Both the position numbers and the translations under genes were made by a program. DNA of 64,000 nucleotides from Mobula hypostoma. Its lineage: Eukaryota. Position 1 is the first letter of the stretch. Every line of letters starts with the position of its first letter. Below the pieces are notes generated by a model. It made no database searches, was not told the DNA's origin, and was given only the letters and a program-made list of their open reading frames with translations. Of the stretch, positions 25,456 through 63,923 are shown piece after piece. Location: the NCBI RefSeq assembly GCF_963921235.1, contig NC_086108.1:90584001-90648000 (forward strand), read 5' to 3'.

Positions 25456-28255
25456 CTAGTCCCACCAACCTGCACTCAGCCCATAACACTCCATTCCTTT
25501 CCTGTCCATATATCTATCCAATTTTACCTTAACTGACAATATCGAGCCTGCCTTTACCACTTCTACTGGAAGCTCGTTCCACACAGCCACCACTCTCTGA
25601 GTAAAGAAGTTCCCCCTCACGTTACCCCTAAACTTTTGCCCCCTAACTCTCAACTCGTGCTCTGTTTGAATCTCCCCTACTCTCAATGGAAAAAGCCTAT
25701 CCACGTCAACTCTATCTATCCCCTTCATAATTTTAAATACCTCTATCAAGTCCCTCCTCAACCTTCTACGCTCCAAAGAATAAAGACCCAACTTGTTCAA
25801 CCTTCCTCTGTAACTTAGGTGCTGAAACCCAGGTAACATTCTAATAAATCTTCTCTGTACTCTCTCTATTTTGTTGACATCTTTCCTATAATTCGGTGGC
25901 CAGAACTGTACACAGTACTCCAAATTTGGCCTTACCAATGCCTTGTACAATTTTAACATTGCATCCCAACTCCTATACTCAATGCTCTGATTTATAAAGG
26001 CCAGCATACCAAAAGCTTTCTTCACCACCCTATCCACATGAGATTCCACCTTCAGGGAACTATGCACCATTATTCCTGGATCCCTCTGTTCTACTGCATT
26101 CTTCAATGCCCTACCATTTACCATGTATGTCCTATTTTGATTAGCCCTAACAAAATGTAGCACCTCACACTTATCAACATTAAACTCCATTTGCCATCTT
26201 TCAGCCCACTCTTCTAAGTGGCCTAAATCTCTCTGCAAGCTATGAAAACCTACTTCATTACCCGCCACCTATCTTAGTATCATCTGCATACTTACTAATC
26301 CAATTTACCACCCCATCATCCAAATCATTAATGTATATGATAAACAACATTGGACCCAGTACAGATCCCTGAGGCACACCACTAGTCACTGGCCTCCAAC
26401 CTGACAAACAGTTATCCACCACTACTCTCTGGCATCACTCATCCAGCCACTGTGAATCCATTTAATTACTTCAATATTAATACCTAACGATTGAACCTTC
26501 CTAACTAACCTTCCATGTGGAACCTTCTCAAATGCCTTACTGAAGTCCATATAGACAACATCCACCACTTTACCTTCGTCAACTTTCCTAGTAACCTCTT
26601 CAAATAATTCAATAAGATTTGTCAAACATAGCCTTCCACGCACAAATCCATGTTGACTGTTCCTAATCAGACCCTGTCTGTCCAGATAATTAGATATACC
26701 ATCTCTAAGAATACTTTCCATTAATTTACCCACCACTGACATCAAATTTACAGGCCGAGAATTGCTAGGTTTACTCTTAGAACCCTTTTTAAACAATGGA
26801 ACAACATGAGCAATATGCCAATCCTCCGGCACCATCCCTGTTTCTAATGACATTTGAAATATTTCTGTCGGAGCCCCTGCTATCTCTACACTAACTTCCC
26901 TCAAGGTCCTATGGAATATCCTATCAGGACCTGGAGACATATCCACTTTTATATTCCTTAAAAGCGCCAATACTTTCTCTTCTTTAATCATCATAGTTTC
27001 CATAACTTCCCTACCTGTTTCCCTTACCTTACACAATTCAATATCCTTCTCATTAGTGAGTATCGAAGAAAAGAAATTGTTCAAAATCTCCCCCATCTCT
27101 TTTGGTTCCACACATAGCTGTCCACTCCCACTCTGATTCTCTAAGGGACCAATTTTATCCCTCACTATCCTTTTGCAATTAATATAACTGTAGAAACCCT
27201 TTGGATTTATTTCACCTTACTTGCCAAAGCAACCTCGTATCTTTTTAAAGCTTTTCTAATTTCTAAGATTCTTTTTACATTCTTTATATTCCTCGAGCAC
27301 CTCATTTACTCCATGCTGCCTATGTTTATTGTAGATAGCTCTCCTTTTCCGAATCAAGTTTCCAATATCCCTTGAAAACCATGGCTCTCTCAAACTTATA
27401 ACCTTTCCTTTCAATCTAACAAGAACATACAGATTCTGTACCCTCAAAATTTCACCTTTAAATGACCTCCATTTCTCTATTGTATCCTTTGCATAAAACA
27501 ACTTGTCCCAATCCACTCCTTCTAAATCCTTTCACATCTCCTTGAAGTTAGCCTTTCTCCAATCAAAAATCTCAACCCTGGGTCCCGACCTATCCTTCTC
27601 CATAATTATATTGAAACTAATGGCATTGTGATCACTGGACCCGAAGTGCTCTCCAACACATACCTCCATCACCTGACCTATCTCATTCCGTAACAGGAGA
27701 TCCAACACTGCCCCTTCTCTAGTTGCTACCTCTATGTATTGCTGCAAAAAACTATCCTGCACACATTTTACAAACTCCAAACCATCCAGCCCTTTTACAG
27801 TATGGGCTTCGAGTCTATGTGTGGAAAATTAAAATCTCCCACAGTGACAACCTTGTGCTTACTACAAATATCTGCTATCTCCTTACAAATTTTCTCCTCC
27901 AATTCTCGCTCCCCATTGAGTAGTCTATAATACACCCCTATAAGTGTTACTACACCTTTCCCATTCCTCAGTTCCACCTAAATAGCGTCCCTAGATGAGC
28001 CCTCTAATCTATCCTGCCAGAGCACCGCTGTAATATTTTCTCTGACAAGCAATGCAACACCTCCCCCTCTTGTCCCTCCGATGCTATCACACCTGAAGCA
28101 ACGAAATCCAGGAATATTTAGTTGCCAATCACACCCCTGCTGCAAGCGTGTTTCACTAATAGCTACAACATCATACTTCCAGGTATCAATCCATGCTCGA
28201 AGCTCATCCACATTTCTTACGATGCTCCTAGCATTAAAATAAATGCATTTAAGAA
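25456..28255 (-). pseudogene. CR1 ORF2 (apurinic endonuclease + reverse transcriptase), disrupted
   Basis: YFNARSI, ISETRL, VGDFNFPHID, GSSDHN, QHGFVRGRLCLTNL, YMDFSKAFEKVPH, KYADDTK (about 26275-26295), YKALVRPNLEY. Several stops and frameshifts. Confidence 0.93.
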
Positions 28256-28354: not shown

Positions 28355-29963
28355 CTAGTTTAAATCCACTGGAGCCTCTCTAGCAAACCTACCTGCAAGA
28401 ATATTTGTCCCCCTCCAGTCCAGAGGTAAACCATCCCGCCGGAACAGGTCCCACCTTCCCTGGAAAACTGCCCAATTATTTATAAATCTGAAGCCCTCCC
28501 TCCTGCACCATGTTTTCAGCCACATGTTGATCTGCGCTGTCTTACTATTTCTCCCTATACTGGAGAGGAGAAGATGGTGGCGCGACATAGCTCGCAGCGG
28601 CCACTCCTGTGGTGATTTCTGTTATTTGTCAAGTCGGGTGCCGTGCACAATCCTGATTTGATGGAGACGGATGTGAGAGCACGGAGGAACATCTGGTGAA
28701 ACTTCTGAAATGCCTGCTTCCCTGCTGCTGCTACTGTGCGATCCGAAATCTCCGGAGGGGAAGGCCCCGAGTCCTCAGCTTTGCTTGTTGCTCGGCGGCC
28801 GGGACGGGATCGACGCGCTCGGCAGAGGATGGTGCTCGGTGCTCGGTGTCGACGGGCTGGTCAGAGGCTCGAAGTTTTTGGATGCTGTTGGGTGCTTCCA
28901 ATGGTGCTGCATCGGCAAGTTTGCGGCTCTTGGAGGTTCATGGCAGGGAGAGTTTCTCCCTTGTACCATCTGCGTGAGATGGTGAGGCTATCGGAACTTT
29001 GAGACTTTTTTTTAATGTGCCCATGGTCTGCGCTTTATCAAGTCATGGTATTGCTTTGCACTGCTGTAACTATATGTTATAATTATGTGGTTTTGTCAGT
29101 TTTAGTCTTGGTTTGTCCTGTGTTTCTTGTGATATTCTGGAGGAACATTGTATCATTTTTTAATGCATGCATTTCTAAATGACAATGAATGAGGACTGAG
29201 TGTCCTCATAATCTAATCTAAACCCGCCTGCACGTGGCACTGGTAGCAATCCTGAGATTGCTATCCTGGAGGTTCTGTCCTTTAACTTGCCGCCTAACTC
29301 CCCGAACTCACCTTTCAGGACCTCATCACTCTTCCTACCCACGTCATTGGTCCCTAAATAGACCACGACTTCCGGCTGCTCACCCTCCCCCTTGAGAATA
29401 CTGAGAACTCGATCTGAGATGTCGCGGACCTTGGCACCAGGGAGGCAACAGACCATCTGGGATTCTCAGTCTCTTCCATAGAACCTCTTATCTGTCCCCC
29501 TAACTATCGAATCCCCTATCACTACTGCTCTCCTCTTTTCCCTCCTTCCCTTCTGAGCTGAGGTTCCAGTCTCGGTGCCAGAGACGCAACCACTGCAACT
29601 TGTCCCTGGTAGGTCGTCCCCATCAACAGTATCCAAAACGGTATACTTATTATTGATGGGAACGGCCACAGGGGTGCTGTGCTCTTTCTTTCTGTTTCCC
29701 TTCCCTCTCCTGACAATCACCCAGCTACCTGTCTCCTGACTCTTAGGGGTGACTATCTCTCTGTAACTCCTGCCTATTTCTGCCTCTGCCTCCCGAATGA
29801 TCCGAAGTTCATCCAGCTGCAGCTCCATTTCCCTAACTCGGTTTGTCAGGAGCTGCAGCTGGATGCACCTTTTACAGGTGTAGTCATCAGGGGCAATTGT
29901 GCTCGCCCTGACTTCCCACATACTGCAAACAGAGCACTCAACTGCCCTAACTGCTGCCTCCAT
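28355..29963 (-). pseudogene. CR1 ORF1 (zinc finger/leucine zipper + SGNH esterase), disrupted
   Basis: CSVC...CKRC zinc finger, heptad repeat, VVIGDSIVR, CLPGAKV, YLGTNDV and DGLP (for DGLH). Frameshifted and split by 28562-29220. Confidence 0.9.
28562..29220 (+). mobile_element. Non-autonomous retroposon (AAGATGG head, CTAAT-type tail), copy 2
   Basis: Starts GGAGAGGAGAAGATGGTGGCGCG and ends CCTCATAATCTAATCTA. Interrupts CR1 ORF1. Confidence 0.8.
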
Positions 29964-30111
29964 TATCTACTGTTAAGGTAATTTAATTAAAGGAACTTAC
30001 TCGGCCTTACCTCACTTGGAGTGAAGCTTGTCCTCAGCCTCCGCTCGCCGAAGCCTCTCGAGGCAAAGCCTCCCTACTCTTGTCTCCCACTACTCCGTCG
30101 CCTGCTCAGTT

Positions 30112-31059: not shown

Positions 31060-31195
31060 TTTCCCATTTATGACGAAGAGTCTTCTGCCTGAAATGTGAA
31101 TTGCCTTTCTCTTTCCACAGATGCTGCCTGACCCGTTGAGTGCTTTCCTCAATTTCTGTTTAGATTTCAGATTTCAAGCATCTGCAGTTTTTAGG
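31060..31195 (+). mobile_element. Old Penelope terminal repeat remnant
   Basis: ATGACGAAGAGTCTTCTGCCTGAAATG...CACAGATGCTGCCTGACC...AGCATCTGCAG. Confidence 0.6.
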
Positions 31196-37401: not shown

Positions 37402-37618
37402 ACAGGTTGAACAGTGGCCATGCCATCATCTGCTATGCTCAACACAAGTTCAGTGAAGATATCTTTAAGATAAATTCCCCCTCCTAAAGTGCTGATGAGT
37501 CACAAAGTCAATTTATAGATATTGTTTCAATTATACTCAAGAAGAATTATACGTCGAACATTTACAATATTTCATGTTGGGGCAGCCAGTTTTATCTTGG
37601 CCAGCAAAGAAATCTTTT

Positions 37619-37716
37619 GCAACACACATAAGTTGTAGGAGGAACTCAGCAGGTCAGGCAGCATCTGTGGAAAAGAATAAATAGTTAACATTTTGGGCTG
37701 AGACCCTACGTCAGGA
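37619..37716 (-). mobile_element. Penelope terminal repeat remnant
   Basis: Minus strand CCTGACGTAGGGTCTCAGCCCAAAATG... followed by the family tail. Confidence 0.7.
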
Positions 37717-37895
37717 TAAAAAATCTTTTGTCATATTCCTGGGATTTGCATATTCTTCCTTGTACTTTGAAAATATTTTGAGAAGTTAATTGTTTTTTCT
37801 CAAATCTCCAATGGATGCTTCAGTTTGCTGTATTCATTTATAAAAATACATCATATAATCAATCACATATTATAGATTTGTTAAAATATAGCATA

Positions 37896-38275
37896 CACTT
37901 AGTAGCCATTTTATTAGGTCTAATAAAGTTTAGCTATTCTCCTCTGACCTCTCTCATTAACAAGACTTCTTTTTGCCCACAGATTAGCTGCTCGTTGGAT
38001 TTTTTTTTATTTTCGCACCAGCCTCTGCAAAATCTAGAGACTGTTGTACATGAAAATCCCAAGAGATCAGCAGTTTCTGAGATACTCAAACCGTCCTGTC
38101 TAATATCAACAATTATTCCACCGTCAAAGTCATTTAGATCATATTTCTTCTCCATTTTGATGTTTGGTCTGAACAATAACTGAACATTTTGACCATGTCT
38201 GCATGTGTTTATGCATTGAGTTGCTGCATTGATTAGATATTCACATTAATGAGCAAGTGTACAGATGTACCTTTG
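37896..38275 (-). mobile_element. Internally deleted Tc1/mariner (same family as 9809-10352)
   Basis: TA|CACTTAGTAGCCATTTTATTAGG; peptide DLNDFDGGIIVDIRQDGLSISETADLLGFS. Confidence 0.75.
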
Positions 38276-38353
38276 TACAGAAGTGTACAGAAAACCTTAG
38301 CGGTTTCCCCCCAGGGCTAAAATGGTTGCCACAAGAGAACACAGGTTTAAGGT

Positions 38354-38667
38354 AACATACATCAAAGTTGCTGGTGAACACAGCAGGCCAAGCAGCATCT
38401 ATAGGAAGAGGCGCAGTTGACGTTTCAGGCCGAGACCCTTCCTGACGAAGGGTCTCGGCCTGAAACGTCGACTGCGCCTCTTCCTATAGATGCTGCTTGG
38501 CCTGCTGCGTTCACCAGCAACTTTGATGTATGTTGCTTGAACGAAGGGTCTCGGCCTGAAACGTCGACTGCGCCTCTTCCTATAGATGCTGCTTGGCCTG
38601 CTGCGTTCACCAGCAACTTTGATGTATGTTGCTTGAATTTCCAGCATCTGCAGAATTCCTGTTGTTT
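38354..38667. mobile_element. Non-autonomous Penelope-derived insertion (inverted plus two tandem units) with 13-bp TSD
   Basis: TSD ACAGGTTTAAGGT at 38341-38353 and 38668-38680. 88-bp inverted arms. Tandem units 96 bp apart. Confidence 0.88.
38442..38474 (+). ncRNA. Hammerhead ribozyme core (5' helix I strand removed by the inversion junction)
   Basis: CUGACGA A GGG UCUCGG CCU GAAA CG UC^GACUG. Confidence 0.65.
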
Positions 38668-39959
38668 ACAGGTTTAAGGTGCTGGGGAGTAGGTATAGAG
38701 GAGATGTCAGGGGTACATTTTTTTACTCAGAGAGTGGTGAGTGCGTGGAATGGGCTGCTGGCAACGATGGTGGAGGTGGATATGATAGGGTCTTTTAAGA
38801 GACATTTGGATAGGTACATGGAGCTTAGAAAAATAGAGGGCTATAGGTAAGCCTAGTAATTTTTAAGGTAGGAACATGTTCGGCACAACTTTGTGGGCTT
38901 GAGGGCCTGTATTGTGCTGTAGTTTTTCTATGTTTCTGTGTTTCTATATACCCAATAAAGTGGCTGCTGAATGTAAAATAGTGATGCTGCAACATTTCAT
39001 GTACTTAAAAAAAACAAAGGCTTTCAACATGACTAAAGGGCATTTCAAATGGGAGGCATTGATTAACCACATTAACCTCTGGATACAACCAGTTACCTGT
39101 CTGATGATGACAAAGAAATATGTGTTGAAGAGGCTGCTGTAACAATCAATTGCCTAGCACCTATAGTTCTCAGTGGGACAATTACCAGACCATTACTCTG
39201 GTCCCAAATGTCGAGGAACCAACAGCCCCAGGAGATAAGCTGGGTAGAGACAGGCTTTTCTGGCAGATTTTGATTGATGGCCCAGTGCACAGCTCAAATG
39301 CAGCCCCAGAGACTAGCTTTTTTTGGCTTTCTTAAATTCTGGTCTCTCATTCTCTTCCTCTAGTACAAACTAACAAAAAATATTGATTCTATTTCATTAA
39401 AATCTGAGGAAAGCAAATGACCACATTACTTCAATCACAACTGATTTTTGAATCTGTGGTTGGACCTTGGCTTGAGCACAGAGCACACAATAATAATGCC
39501 ACTCAAGAATAATTTGAAATGTTTATACCCATTCCAGCTTCAGTAATTTCCAAAAAATGGCAAAGAGCATTTATATTGTCCACATCTAAACTATATCCCA
39601 GCTTTTCCTCCATGGTGTTTGTTCCGTTTTGAAATCAATATCCTCTTTTTCAGTGCAAAACCTGTTAAAATCCATCTTTGCTTTCCCCATGCTATTTAGA
39701 AGTGATCAATTTTATAGACCCTTTATAAATTGAGATTTTATTCCTCTTTTGTGTTACTTCTGCATATTGCAACCTGCAGGATTTTTAAAAATTTACAGTA
39801 AATACGAAAACAATTTTATTTTGTTCAAGGTGATTTTCTAGTTTCTGGAATAAACAGTATGAAATCACGAAATCCTGTTCTGAAGTTGGAGCTCCATGAT
39901 AATCCAGTGGTATCCCAGGATGATTCCATGGAAAGCTGGGACGGGTAAAGGGAAACGGT

Positions 39960-40262: not shown

Positions 40263-40279
40263 GACAACTTGCTCTGAAC

Positions 40280-41840
40280 ATCATACACAGATTGCTGGAA
40301 GAACTCAGCAGGTCAGGCAGCATCTATGGTAATGAATAACTAGTCAATAGTTCAAGCTGAGACCCTTCATCAGCACCGGGAAAATAAGGGGGGAAATGCC
40401 AGAATGAAAAGGCGAGGGGGAGGGGAAGGAGGACAAGTTAGAAGATGATGGGTAAGCCAGGTGAATGGGAAAGGTATAAGGCTGGAGAAGAAGGAATCTG
40501 ATAGGAGAAGAGAGTAGACCTTGGGAGAAAAATGGAGAAAGAGGGGTCTTAGGGGGAGGTGATACGCAGGTAGGGAGAAGAGGTAAGTGACCAGTGTGTG
40601 GAATAGAAGAAGAGGGAAGGGGAGAACAAAAGAAAAGAAAATTACCAGAAAGAAAAATCAATTTTCATGCCATCAGGCTGGAGGCTACCTAGATAGAATA
40701 TGAGATGTTGACCTTCCACCCTGAGAGTGACCTCACCATTACAGAAAAGGAGGACATGGGCTGACATGTTGGAAAGGGAATAGGAATTAAAGTATTTGGC
40801 TACTGGGAAATTCTATTTTTGGCAGATAGAGTGGAGATGTTAGATAAAGTGGTCCCCCAACTTACGTTGGGTCTCACTGATGTAGAGGAGGACGTATCAG
40901 CAGCACCAGATACATAGACAACCCCAACAGATTCACAAGTGAAGCATTGGCTCACCTGGAACGACTGTTAGGGGCCTGAATGAAGTTGACGAAGGAGGTA
41001 AATGGGCAGGTGCAGCATTTCTCTCGCTGGCAGGGATTTGTGCCAGGAGGAAGATTAGTGGGGAGGGAAAATGGATGATGAATCGTGGAGGGAGCCAACC
41101 CTGTGGAAAGCAGAGAATGGGTGGGGGACAGTAAAGGTGCATTTGGCAGTAGGATCCCCATTGAACATGGTAAGGGTAGCAGAGAATGATGTGTTGGATG
41201 TAGAGGCTCATGGGGTGGTAGGTGAGGACAAGAGGAACTCTATCCTGTTAAGGTGGCAGGAAGAAGGGGTGTGCGCAGATGTCCAGGAAATGGAGATGTG
41301 AGTGAGGGCAGCAGTAATGGTGGAGGAAGGTTAACTCCATTCTTTGAAGAAAAAGGATATCTCTGATGTCCTGGAAAGGAAAGCCTTGTCTTGGGAACAG
41401 ATGTGGCAGAGAAGAAAGAACTGAGAAAAGGGAATAATATTTTTACAGGAGACAGGGTGGGAGGACAGGACGTCAAGATAGCCGTGGGAATTAGTAGGTT
41501 TATAAAAGATGTCAGTAGAAATATTGTCTCCAGAGATGGAGACAGGGGGATTGAGAAAGGGAAGAGAGGTGTCAGAAATGGACAAAATGAATTTAAGGGC
41601 AGGGTAGAAGGTAAAGTCAAGGTTGATGAAATTGATGAGCTCAGTATGAACATGTGAAGCAGCACCAATGCAGTTGTCAGTGTAGTGCAGAAAGAATTGG
41701 GAAGCATTACCAGGGAAGGCTTGGAACATGGACTGTTTCATATTGCCATCAAAGAAGCAGGCATAGCTGGGGCCCTTGCTAGTGTGCATGGTTACCCCTT
41801 GAGTTTGGAGGAAGTGGGAGGAGCCAAAGGAGAAATTTGT
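40280..41840 (-). mobile_element. Penelope-like retroelement: decayed RT, GIY-YIG endonuclease and hammerhead-bearing terminal repeat
   Basis: NFSFGSSHFLQTQGVTM...GPSYAC...FFLHYTDNC...LPFLN...FYKPTNSHGYL...HPVSCKNIIPFSQF. FTCESVGVVY/LYISETQRKLGDHF at about 40845-40960. Degenerate hammerhead at 40341-40378. Confidence 0.9.
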
Positions 41841-50446: not shown

Positions 50447-50618
50447 AAATGCAAAACACCGTGGATGCTGGAAACCAGAAATCAGAACAGAAATTGGTGG
50501 AAACACTCAGAAGGTCAGGCATCATCTGTGGAGAGAGAAATTCAGTGAATCTTTCAGTTCAGTGACTTTCATCAGATGAAAGGTCTATTGAAAGTCATTG
50601 ACCTGAAACATTGACTCT
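50447..50618. mobile_element. Old head-to-head Penelope terminal repeat remnants
   Basis: GGATGCTGGAAACCAG...AGGTCAGGCATCATCTGTGG (minus) meets GATGAAAGGTC...CCTGAAACATTGACT (plus). Confidence 0.55.
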
Positions 50619-55860: not shown

Positions 55861-56495
55861 TATTATACTTTGACACTCTCACTCAGATCATTAAATTGTG
55901 ACCGGCTGTGGCTTTTACAGATCACCAACCGTCCCTCCCCTACCCCAGAAGACTACCATTCACATCTTTTTTAATCTAAAAAAAGGCTGATTTATTCCTA
56001 CTCTTTGTTGTGTCCATTAACCAATCACAGAAGAACAATTTATTACCCCACTATCATGTGCTTCAGTTTTCTTCAGGAATGCACTGCATTGTGTGATACC
56101 TTATGAAATATACTATGTCAACAGGTCTGCCTTTGTCTGCTTTGCTCGTTACATTCTTAAAATGCTCTAACAGATTTGTCAAACATGATTTCCGATTCAT
56201 AAATTCATGTTGACTCTGCTTAATTCTGTTGCTGCCATCATTTTCACAGTTATTGATGTAAGGATAAATGGGGTTTAGTTCTCTGATTTCTCTCTTCCTC
56301 TTAAATAATAGGGTTATATTTACTTTTTTCTGATCTGTTCTCAAATCTGTGAAATACTAGCAAGGAACAGCTAATTCATCTTCAATTTTTTGAGATGGAG
56401 TGCATGAAAAGTTGGAGATTTAGCTCCTTTAATACCTCCATTAGCAGCTTGTTTCCCTGAGTCCTTGACTTGCTATAAACTATACCCTACTTCCA

Positions 56496-56712
56496 AAAAC
56501 AAACGAGAACATTTGCAGATGTTGGAAATCCAAGCAACACACACAGAATGCTGGAGAAACTCAGCAGGCCAGGCAGCATCTATGGAAAAGAGTACAGTCG
56601 ACATTTTGGGCCAAAATTTCGACTGTACTCTTTTCCATAGATGCTGCCTGTCCTGCTGAGTTCCTCCAGCATTTTTTGGGTGTAGCCTTACTTCCAACAA
56701 ATCTGTTGTGTT
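56496..56712. mobile_element. Head-to-head Penelope terminal repeats (fold-back)
   Basis: About 70-bp imperfect inverted arms centred near 56610. Confidence 0.8.
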
Positions 56713-63614: not shown

Positions 63615-63733
63615 TGAATGCTGGAGGAACTCAGCAGGCCAGGCAGCATCTATGGAAAAGAGTACAGTCAACATTTCAGGCTGAGACCCTTCATCAGGAC
63701 TGATTTCTGGCATCTGCAGATTTTCTCTTGTTT
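63615..63733 (-). mobile_element. Short Penelope-derived insertion (minus unit plus inverted tail tip)
   Basis: Family tail and hammerhead on the minus strand, then plus-strand GATTTCTGGCATCTGCAGATTTTCTCTTGTTT. Confidence 0.78.
63665..63702 (-). ncRNA. Minimal type-I hammerhead ribozyme motif
   Basis: CAGUC CUGAUGA A GGG UCUCAG CCU GAAA UG UU GACUG; helix I intact. Confidence 0.65.
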
Positions 63734-63923
63734 GCCCTTGAATTGCCCCCTCATCTGCTAAAGAATGATTTCCTGATCTCCCAATCTGCATTCTCGTGGC
63801 CCTTACACTTCATTTTTCCTCTTGCATTGCACTTTCTCTGTATCCCTTTCTTTTTATTTCCTTATTGTAATTATGTGTGGCATGAACTGTCTGGATGGCA
63901 CACAAAAGAAAAGCTTTTCGCAA

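Follow-up and report, generated by a model that had tools for sequence, protein, structure and literature searches.

As reported, the canonical plan of EN+ Penelope-like elements (PLEs) runs from a reverse transcriptase (RT) through GIY-YIG to a hammerhead-bearing repeat (PMC8557442, PMC4209133), and an inverted 5′-truncated copy combined with a tail is their typical layout (PMC8557442, PMC2377424). Pen2a_Av of Adineta combines two direct terminal repeats (pLTRs) with an adjacent inverted pLTR shorter by 37 bp; its tail is 31 bp long and its target-site duplication (TSD) 9 bp (PMC3846280). In vitro, the PLE protein of Anolis, a predicted dimer, nicks its target on both strands and extends each of them; reverse transcription of the lizard element starts at two internal positions that delimit the tail and does not require ribozyme cleavage (PMC11167929). 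For head-to-head junctions, self-priming on an antisense template has been favored (PMC3846280). The mechanism that generates complex tandem and inverted PLE products is still described as unexplained (PMC8557442).

In this study, we analyzed an insert of 314 bp in a 64-kb window, that is, the whole stretch of Mobula hypostoma DNA under analysis. Similar to EN+ PLEs such as Pen2a_Av, the insert has two direct pLTRs, an inverted pLTR that is 37 bp shorter and a head-to-head junction. Like the EN+ PLE insertions described in PMC3846280 and PMC8557442, it has a tail of 30–40 bp at one end and falls within their TSD range of about 8–13 bp. In contrast to Pen2a_Av, the direct repeats of the insert, both truncated in the hammerhead, enclose neither an ORF nor captured sequence, and the overlap at the junction is 2 nt instead of 15. 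We consider it about 80% probable that the insert is a dead-on-arrival, 5′-truncated EN+ PLE insertion that holds only pieces of the 3′ terminal repeat. The inverted-tandem-tail pattern of insertion is already known, and the insert is a clean young example of it rather than a new retrozyme.

Results

The 13-mer ACAGGTTTAAGGT is found at 38341–38353 (plus strand), within the tail of a host LINE, and again at 38668–38680 (plus strand), with a 13/13 match that cannot be extended. A search of both strands of the window returned these two occurrences only. The TSD score of the insert is 13, and random intervals (n = 400) reach at most 8. An AC...GT symmetry at the TSD ends was dropped as a feature, being absent from other TSDs.

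The sequence between the two copies of the 13-mer (38354–38667) is made up of three repeat units and a tail. The first is an inverted, 5′-truncated and tail-less pLTR copy of 88 bp (38354–38441, minus strand), which ends at the upstream terminus of the family, hereafter site A. Self-alignment demonstrates that this arm is the reverse complement of 38447–38534 with two mismatches (38380 and 38418), the 5-nt loop of the fold-back being CTGAC (38442–38446). At the head-to-head junction, self-alignment and the upstream sequence of the family define a 2-nt overlap, TC (38440–38441); these two letters close the inverted arm and are also the end of the 5′ strand of stem I in the family. The second is direct pLTR unit 1 (38445–38540, plus strand), whose homology starts from 38440 and which also ends tail-less at site A. 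The third is direct pLTR unit 2 (38541–38637, plus strand), which starts within the hammerhead core and whose CUGAnGA is destroyed. These two units meet at TTGA-ACGA with a 1-nt overlap, and over the 96-bp period (38445–38540 against 38541–38636) they are 100% identical (96/96). Unit 2 runs into the PLE tail (38638–38667, plus strand), which, based on alignment and the loose ends of sequencing run X1, marks a downstream start site, hereafter site B.

An earlier, sequence-only reading had described the 13-bp TSD, the 314-bp insert, the 88-bp fold-back and the 5-nt loop, and our coordinates reproduce them all. The same reading had seen a second direct unit 96 bp downstream that looked identical and had lost CUGA, and it had found no coding capacity; both observations about unit 2 are borne out above, and no ORF of at least 150 aa overlaps the insert in a listing of frames of that length and longer. 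The 30-nt tail of the last unit was missing from its description. The insert folds with z = −23.5 (0/100 shuffles as good), and a read-through transcript would form an 88-bp hairpin.

The host is an older 5′-truncated LINE 3′ end that is split by the insert (approximately 38300–38945, plus strand), with a tail that we take to be of CR1 type. This tail is similar (68%, E 2e-7) to the 3′ end of the LINE at 25.5–27.2 kb, whose RT is identified by Pfam (RVT_1). When the flanks are rejoined, they form a LINE 3′ end, and the reading frame continues through a single 13-mer. Moreover, related LINE copies in four sequencing runs contain the 13-mer once and uninterrupted (loose ends at 38353 and 38668). 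Because related LINE tails hold one copy, the 13-mer is a true target duplication made by the insertion. The left flank at 37900–38260 is itself repetitive, its summed depth being very high in each of the four runs. The segments 25456–27216 and 29466–29966 (minus strand) are pieces of one long LINE copy with an RT domain by Pfam; its upstream frame, presumably ORF1-like, gave no Pfam match.

The three units of the insert are the 3′ terminal repeat of a very abundant PLE. Outside the insert, tblastn and alignment identify a decayed, 5′-truncated PLE (40279–41840, minus strand) with several stops and frameshifts. It comprises an RT (41837–40914), GIY-YIG to about 40651, a pyrimidine-rich UTR and a pLTR (40373–40279). 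Its relative P0002 aligns by tblastn across 41837–40651, covering the RT and the C-terminal GIY-YIG. In Pfam searches of relatives, P0002 matched GIY-YIG (E 8e-4) and P0003 matched RVT_1 (E 1e-4), both below the curated cut-off; the window's own decayed PLE frames gave neither an RT nor a GIY-YIG match. A PDB sequence search returned nothing relevant, and an atlas lookup gave PF26215/RVT_1 clusters as a lead. Because the decayed copy joins the same repeat to an RT and GIY-YIG, the family of the insert is an EN+ PLE, in agreement with the Penelope origin proposed previously.

The repeat of the decayed PLE is 75% identical to the insert and thus belongs to a more distant subfamily, and no intact source element was seen. 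A profile search found 16 repeat units in the window, three of them within the insert. The summed read depth over the insert is 4–5 orders above that of the unique flanks, which shows abundance and gives no copy number. Additionally, all three units of the insert share minority letters of run X1 (T at 38497, G at 38476 and A at 38626). Based on these shared letters, a single source for the three units is likely. A partial literature yielded no paper on this ray PLE family.

Outside the insert, at 56485–56700, there is an older fold-back built in the same way, with its tail-bearing long arm on the minus strand and its shorter arm on the plus strand. Its 76-nt arms are 91% complementary and centered on the GGCC of stem II; it has a TSD of about 12 bp with one mismatch, and only one arm has a tail. 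We searched for TSDs around eight other copies with bounds set by eye, leaving out the copies at 40.3, 31.1, 50.5 and 0.95 kb. Two of the eight (37.6 kb and 56.5 kb) beat all 400 controls, three were within the chance range, and three gave no TSD. The copy at 37607–37730 (minus strand) is an older solo pLTR with a 13-bp TSD with one mismatch, and it shares its TCCTGA starting point with unit 1. The pLTR copy at 63617–63735 (minus strand) has an inverted tail fragment (63703–63733) at its 5′ end, which is the 'tail at either end' form, and a candidate 9-bp TSD within the chance range. Three more diverged pLTR relatives (31064–31158, 50487–50557 and 924–1020) differ in their stem II sequences and probably represent other PLE subfamilies.

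These copies bear on whether the composite was copied whole from a pre-existing non-autonomous mini-PLE master moved in trans. As reported, pLTR sequences suffice for mobilization in trans (PMC3846280), and some PLE derivatives that are putatively non-autonomous form multicopy head-to-tail insertions (PMC8557442); the two changes in the arm could also predate such a move. However, the site A end of the arm abuts the TSD, as priming there predicts. The 56.5-kb fold-back has a different center (56610), so the junctions look event-specific; the composite structure is seen once in the window, where neither of its internal junctions has a second copy. A master of this kind is therefore a distinctly improbable source. 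The non-autonomous element assumed by the sequence-only reading is not needed either, as a 5′-truncated copy of an ordinary PLE transcript would explain the structure equally well.

The ends of the units fall at a few recurrent positions. At their 3′ ends, the arm and unit 1 stop at site A (38534 and 38540), and unit 2 extends 30–37 nt past it to 38667 (30 beyond unit 1 and 37 beyond the arm). Among 13 window units aligned and scored by eye, a count that omits the three most diverged copies, eight end at site A, three at the tail end and two earlier. In run X1, 203 loose ends mark a family terminus near 38667. At the other side, 9 of the 13 window units start 10–35 nt upstream of the hammerhead cut (by eye), and the three cDNA stops of the insert lie within 8 nt in the hammerhead core (38440, the equivalent of 38445 and the equivalent of 38447). 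This arrangement is similar to that of Poseidon PAc of Anolis carolinensis, in which two preferred ends delimit the tail and the hammerhead lies approximately 100–130 nt upstream of them (PMC11167929). In contrast to PAc, whose start sites lie in an AC-rich stem-loop, the sites of the present family follow GU-rich sequence.

The same ends argue against retroposition of a pLTR RNA in trans by a LINE (CR1 or L1) through twin priming. The 13-bp TSD and the 5′ inversion do resemble L1 twin-priming products (PMC2837659), and LINEs are abundant in the window. However, the insert has neither a poly(A) nor a LINE-type microsatellite end, both of its primed ends are the PLE family's own two termini, as seen family-wide in the window, and both arms copy the same sequence. 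We find a LINE origin scarcely credible.

To assess the hammerhead, we compared the units with the minimal type I hammerheads of metazoan PLEs (PMC4209133). The motif pattern places a minimal core in unit 1 at 38442–38469 (plus strand; CUGAcGA, stem II and GAAAC-GUC), with predicted cuts at 38469/38470 in unit 1 and 38565/38566 in unit 2. Less truncated copies contain CUGAnGA, stem II and the palindromic ACGU ahead of the cut. Like the published motifs, the family has CUGAnGA, an extra A before stem II, no stem III and ACGU before the cut, and the less truncated window copies at 59.2 and 63.7 kb have a stem I of 4–5 bp. In contrast to those motifs, unit 1 of the insert has a stem I of 2 bp and unit 2 has a broken core, and stem II is just 3–5 bp long. 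Intact copies have a 5-bp stem I, and unit 1 is not a full hammerhead because the inverted arm replaces the 5′ strand of stem I. In run X1, 307 loose ends continue upstream of 38440 as ...AG, and window copies read ...AG-TCCTGA. The pattern together with a 5-bp stem I occurs in two of six other core-bearing window copies, both of which are changed elsewhere, and this is pattern evidence only. The claim that unit 1 keeps the full hammerhead core thus holds for the core letters and not for a full hammerhead.

Rfam gave no match at the gathering score on the window. Around the insert, it gave seven weak matches, none to a hammerhead; the miRNA and RRE matches, below their cut-offs, arise because of the long hairpin. 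The sole conceivable active site in the insert is a half-site formed by the core of unit 1 and the cut strand of unit 2. In folding, this conformer reached −169.4 compared with a minimum of −227.8, a cost of +58 kcal/mol. According to this prediction, the insert should not self-cleave.

All three units retain 23–30 nt upstream of the predicted cut, no junction of the insert lies at the cut, and none of the 16 units found by the profile search in the window begins there. Because cDNA of a cleaved 3′ product cannot contain these 23–30 nt, the insert was copied from an uncleaved template. CUGAnGA is missing from the 96-nt period, and a circle of that length would have no core. The template was also not a circle, because the tail lies outside the 96-nt period, as does the 5′ TCCTG. 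Collectively, the ribozyme took no part in making this copy.

These results bear directly on the previous proposal that the insert is retrozyme-like and derives from a short RNA, either ribozyme-cut or circular. Like non-LTR retrozymes (PMC7229834 and bioRxiv 10.64898/2026.07.22.740005), the insert is non-coding and related to PLE pLTRs and contains head-to-tail units with hammerhead letters; its TSD exceeds 4 bp, which matches metazoan retrozymes (PMC7229834). A further point in favor is that one family junction at another locus sits at the cut (run X1). The non-coding state, the lack of an LTR and the TSD of more than 4 bp are unspecific, however, truncated PLEs sharing them. Unlike non-LTR retrozymes, the insert has ends that are not set by the cut, an inverted arm and a tail, and a minimal rather than canonical motif. 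Complete type I hammerheads, which the retrozyme criterion of bioRxiv 10.64898/2026.07.22.740005 calls for in at least two consecutive units, occur in 0/2 direct units, and the repeat unit is not a cut-to-cut monomer that could circularize and be cut again. It is also below the monomers tested, of 150 nt and more and mostly 220–350 nt (PMC7229834); predicted retrozyme consensus lengths reach down to 51 bp, and the supplements of the preprint (bioRxiv 10.64898/2026.07.22.740005) list chondrichthyan retrozyme families that may include the repeat of the insert. With the upstream nucleotides kept in all three units and both the tail and TCCTG outside the period, we regard a retrozyme-like origin as very improbable, and the proposed copying from processed RNA is not upheld.

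Two observations from other loci of the family concern the same region. Among the matches listed, a contig of run X1 (depth 52) is the one that joins 38667 to 38566, the first base past the cut; cleaved templates may therefore occur at other family loci. Three contigs (X1 and X11), again among the matches listed, link 38470–38474 back to 38440, a pattern suggestive of short (35–40 nt) duplications in which the ribozyme domain is repeated in tandem elsewhere in the family; the joints are listed without their direction.

Both changes in the arm are derived CpG transitions (P about 0.012 if randomly placed), which is what real, recent aging in the genome, and not a library fold-back, would be expected to leave. 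The insert has 2 changes per 264 compared positions, both of them hypermutable, compared with 8 differences per 685 flank bases to organism B. Judged from these counts, the insertion would date near or after the split from organism B, with a large error, in line with the recent insertion proposed previously.

The read-based checks used contigs from 4 of 23 sequencing runs. Joints that skip 326–337 bases appear in all four runs, with sides of 25–26 letters and mostly at several times the single-copy depth; one in X5 has a depth of 5.6, near single-copy depth, and is equally short. We rejected these joints as an orthologous empty allele. Because of their short sides, their high depth and the LINE-family letters held by the loose ends there, they are read as paralogous LINE tails. 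Among the contigs of the four runs, all short, no orthologous empty allele was seen, and none of those listed spans the insert.

The distribution of the changes leaves room for a later tandem duplication or conversion, since the arm holds both of them and the direct units hold neither (P about 0.11 if all units are equally old). In that case, a simple tailed fold-back would have acquired the 96-bp tandem by local duplication (slippage or unequal exchange) or by assembly expansion. The 96/96 identity of the direct units beside an arm with two changes fits such a history, as do a near-microhomology (CCTGA/CTTGA) at both ends of the period and the lack of a spanning contig. Against it, the junction joins the commonest 3′ end of the family (site A, 8/13) to the stop zone of the other units, slippage on TGA predicts a period of 95 nt whereas 96 is observed, the split of mutations is not significant, and partial tandems are routine in PLEs (PMC8557442). 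We therefore consider a later duplication improbable and retain a single 5′-truncated PLE insertion as the preferred reading.

Discussion

Based on this one sequence and on the enzyme of another species, we infer the following order of events, including priming on both strands. The PLE protein would nick the target on both strands, the nicks being 13 nt apart. Priming from the bottom-strand 3′ end would start a cDNA at the tail end (38667), and this cDNA would stop in the core at 38541. The RT would then restart at site A (38540) and stop again in the core (38440–38442), producing the partial tandem. Primed by the top-strand 3′ end, another cDNA would start at site A and stop at the equivalent of 38447, which would yield the inverted arm. 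Finally, the two cDNA ends would be joined via the 2-nt overlap, and host repair would fill in the gaps and duplicate the 13 bp. The left TSD can pair loosely at its 3′ end with RNA just past site A, a weak hint at priming there. Several reverse-transcription starts within one event, previously proposed as template jumps, are supported by this layout.

The proposed order is consistent with PAc, which also makes copies from uncleaved RNA and whose activity on both strands would explain the inversion (PMC11167929). For the head-to-head junction itself, self-priming on an antisense template, as preferred in PMC3846280, may have operated instead.

The stops in the core and the starts of the window units upstream of the cut admit a further explanation, which we put forward tentatively and consider unlikely. 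They might reflect the fixed 5′ end of a short (approximately 130-nt) SINE-like pLTR RNA, or an obstacle to the RT in the form of the folded ribozyme. The family would then be a hugely amplified non-autonomous PLE partner, in which a minor class may be copied from ribozyme-cut RNA. If this were true, the insertions of the family would map RT start and stop sites in vivo.

As a single locus, the insert matters little. It records PLE transposition legibly, with two start sites, priming on both strands as proposed above and an uncut template, matching the in vitro results from the lizard. The genome contains very many young copies of the family, and a survey of where they begin and end could show whether the PLE hammerhead ever influences the template in vivo.
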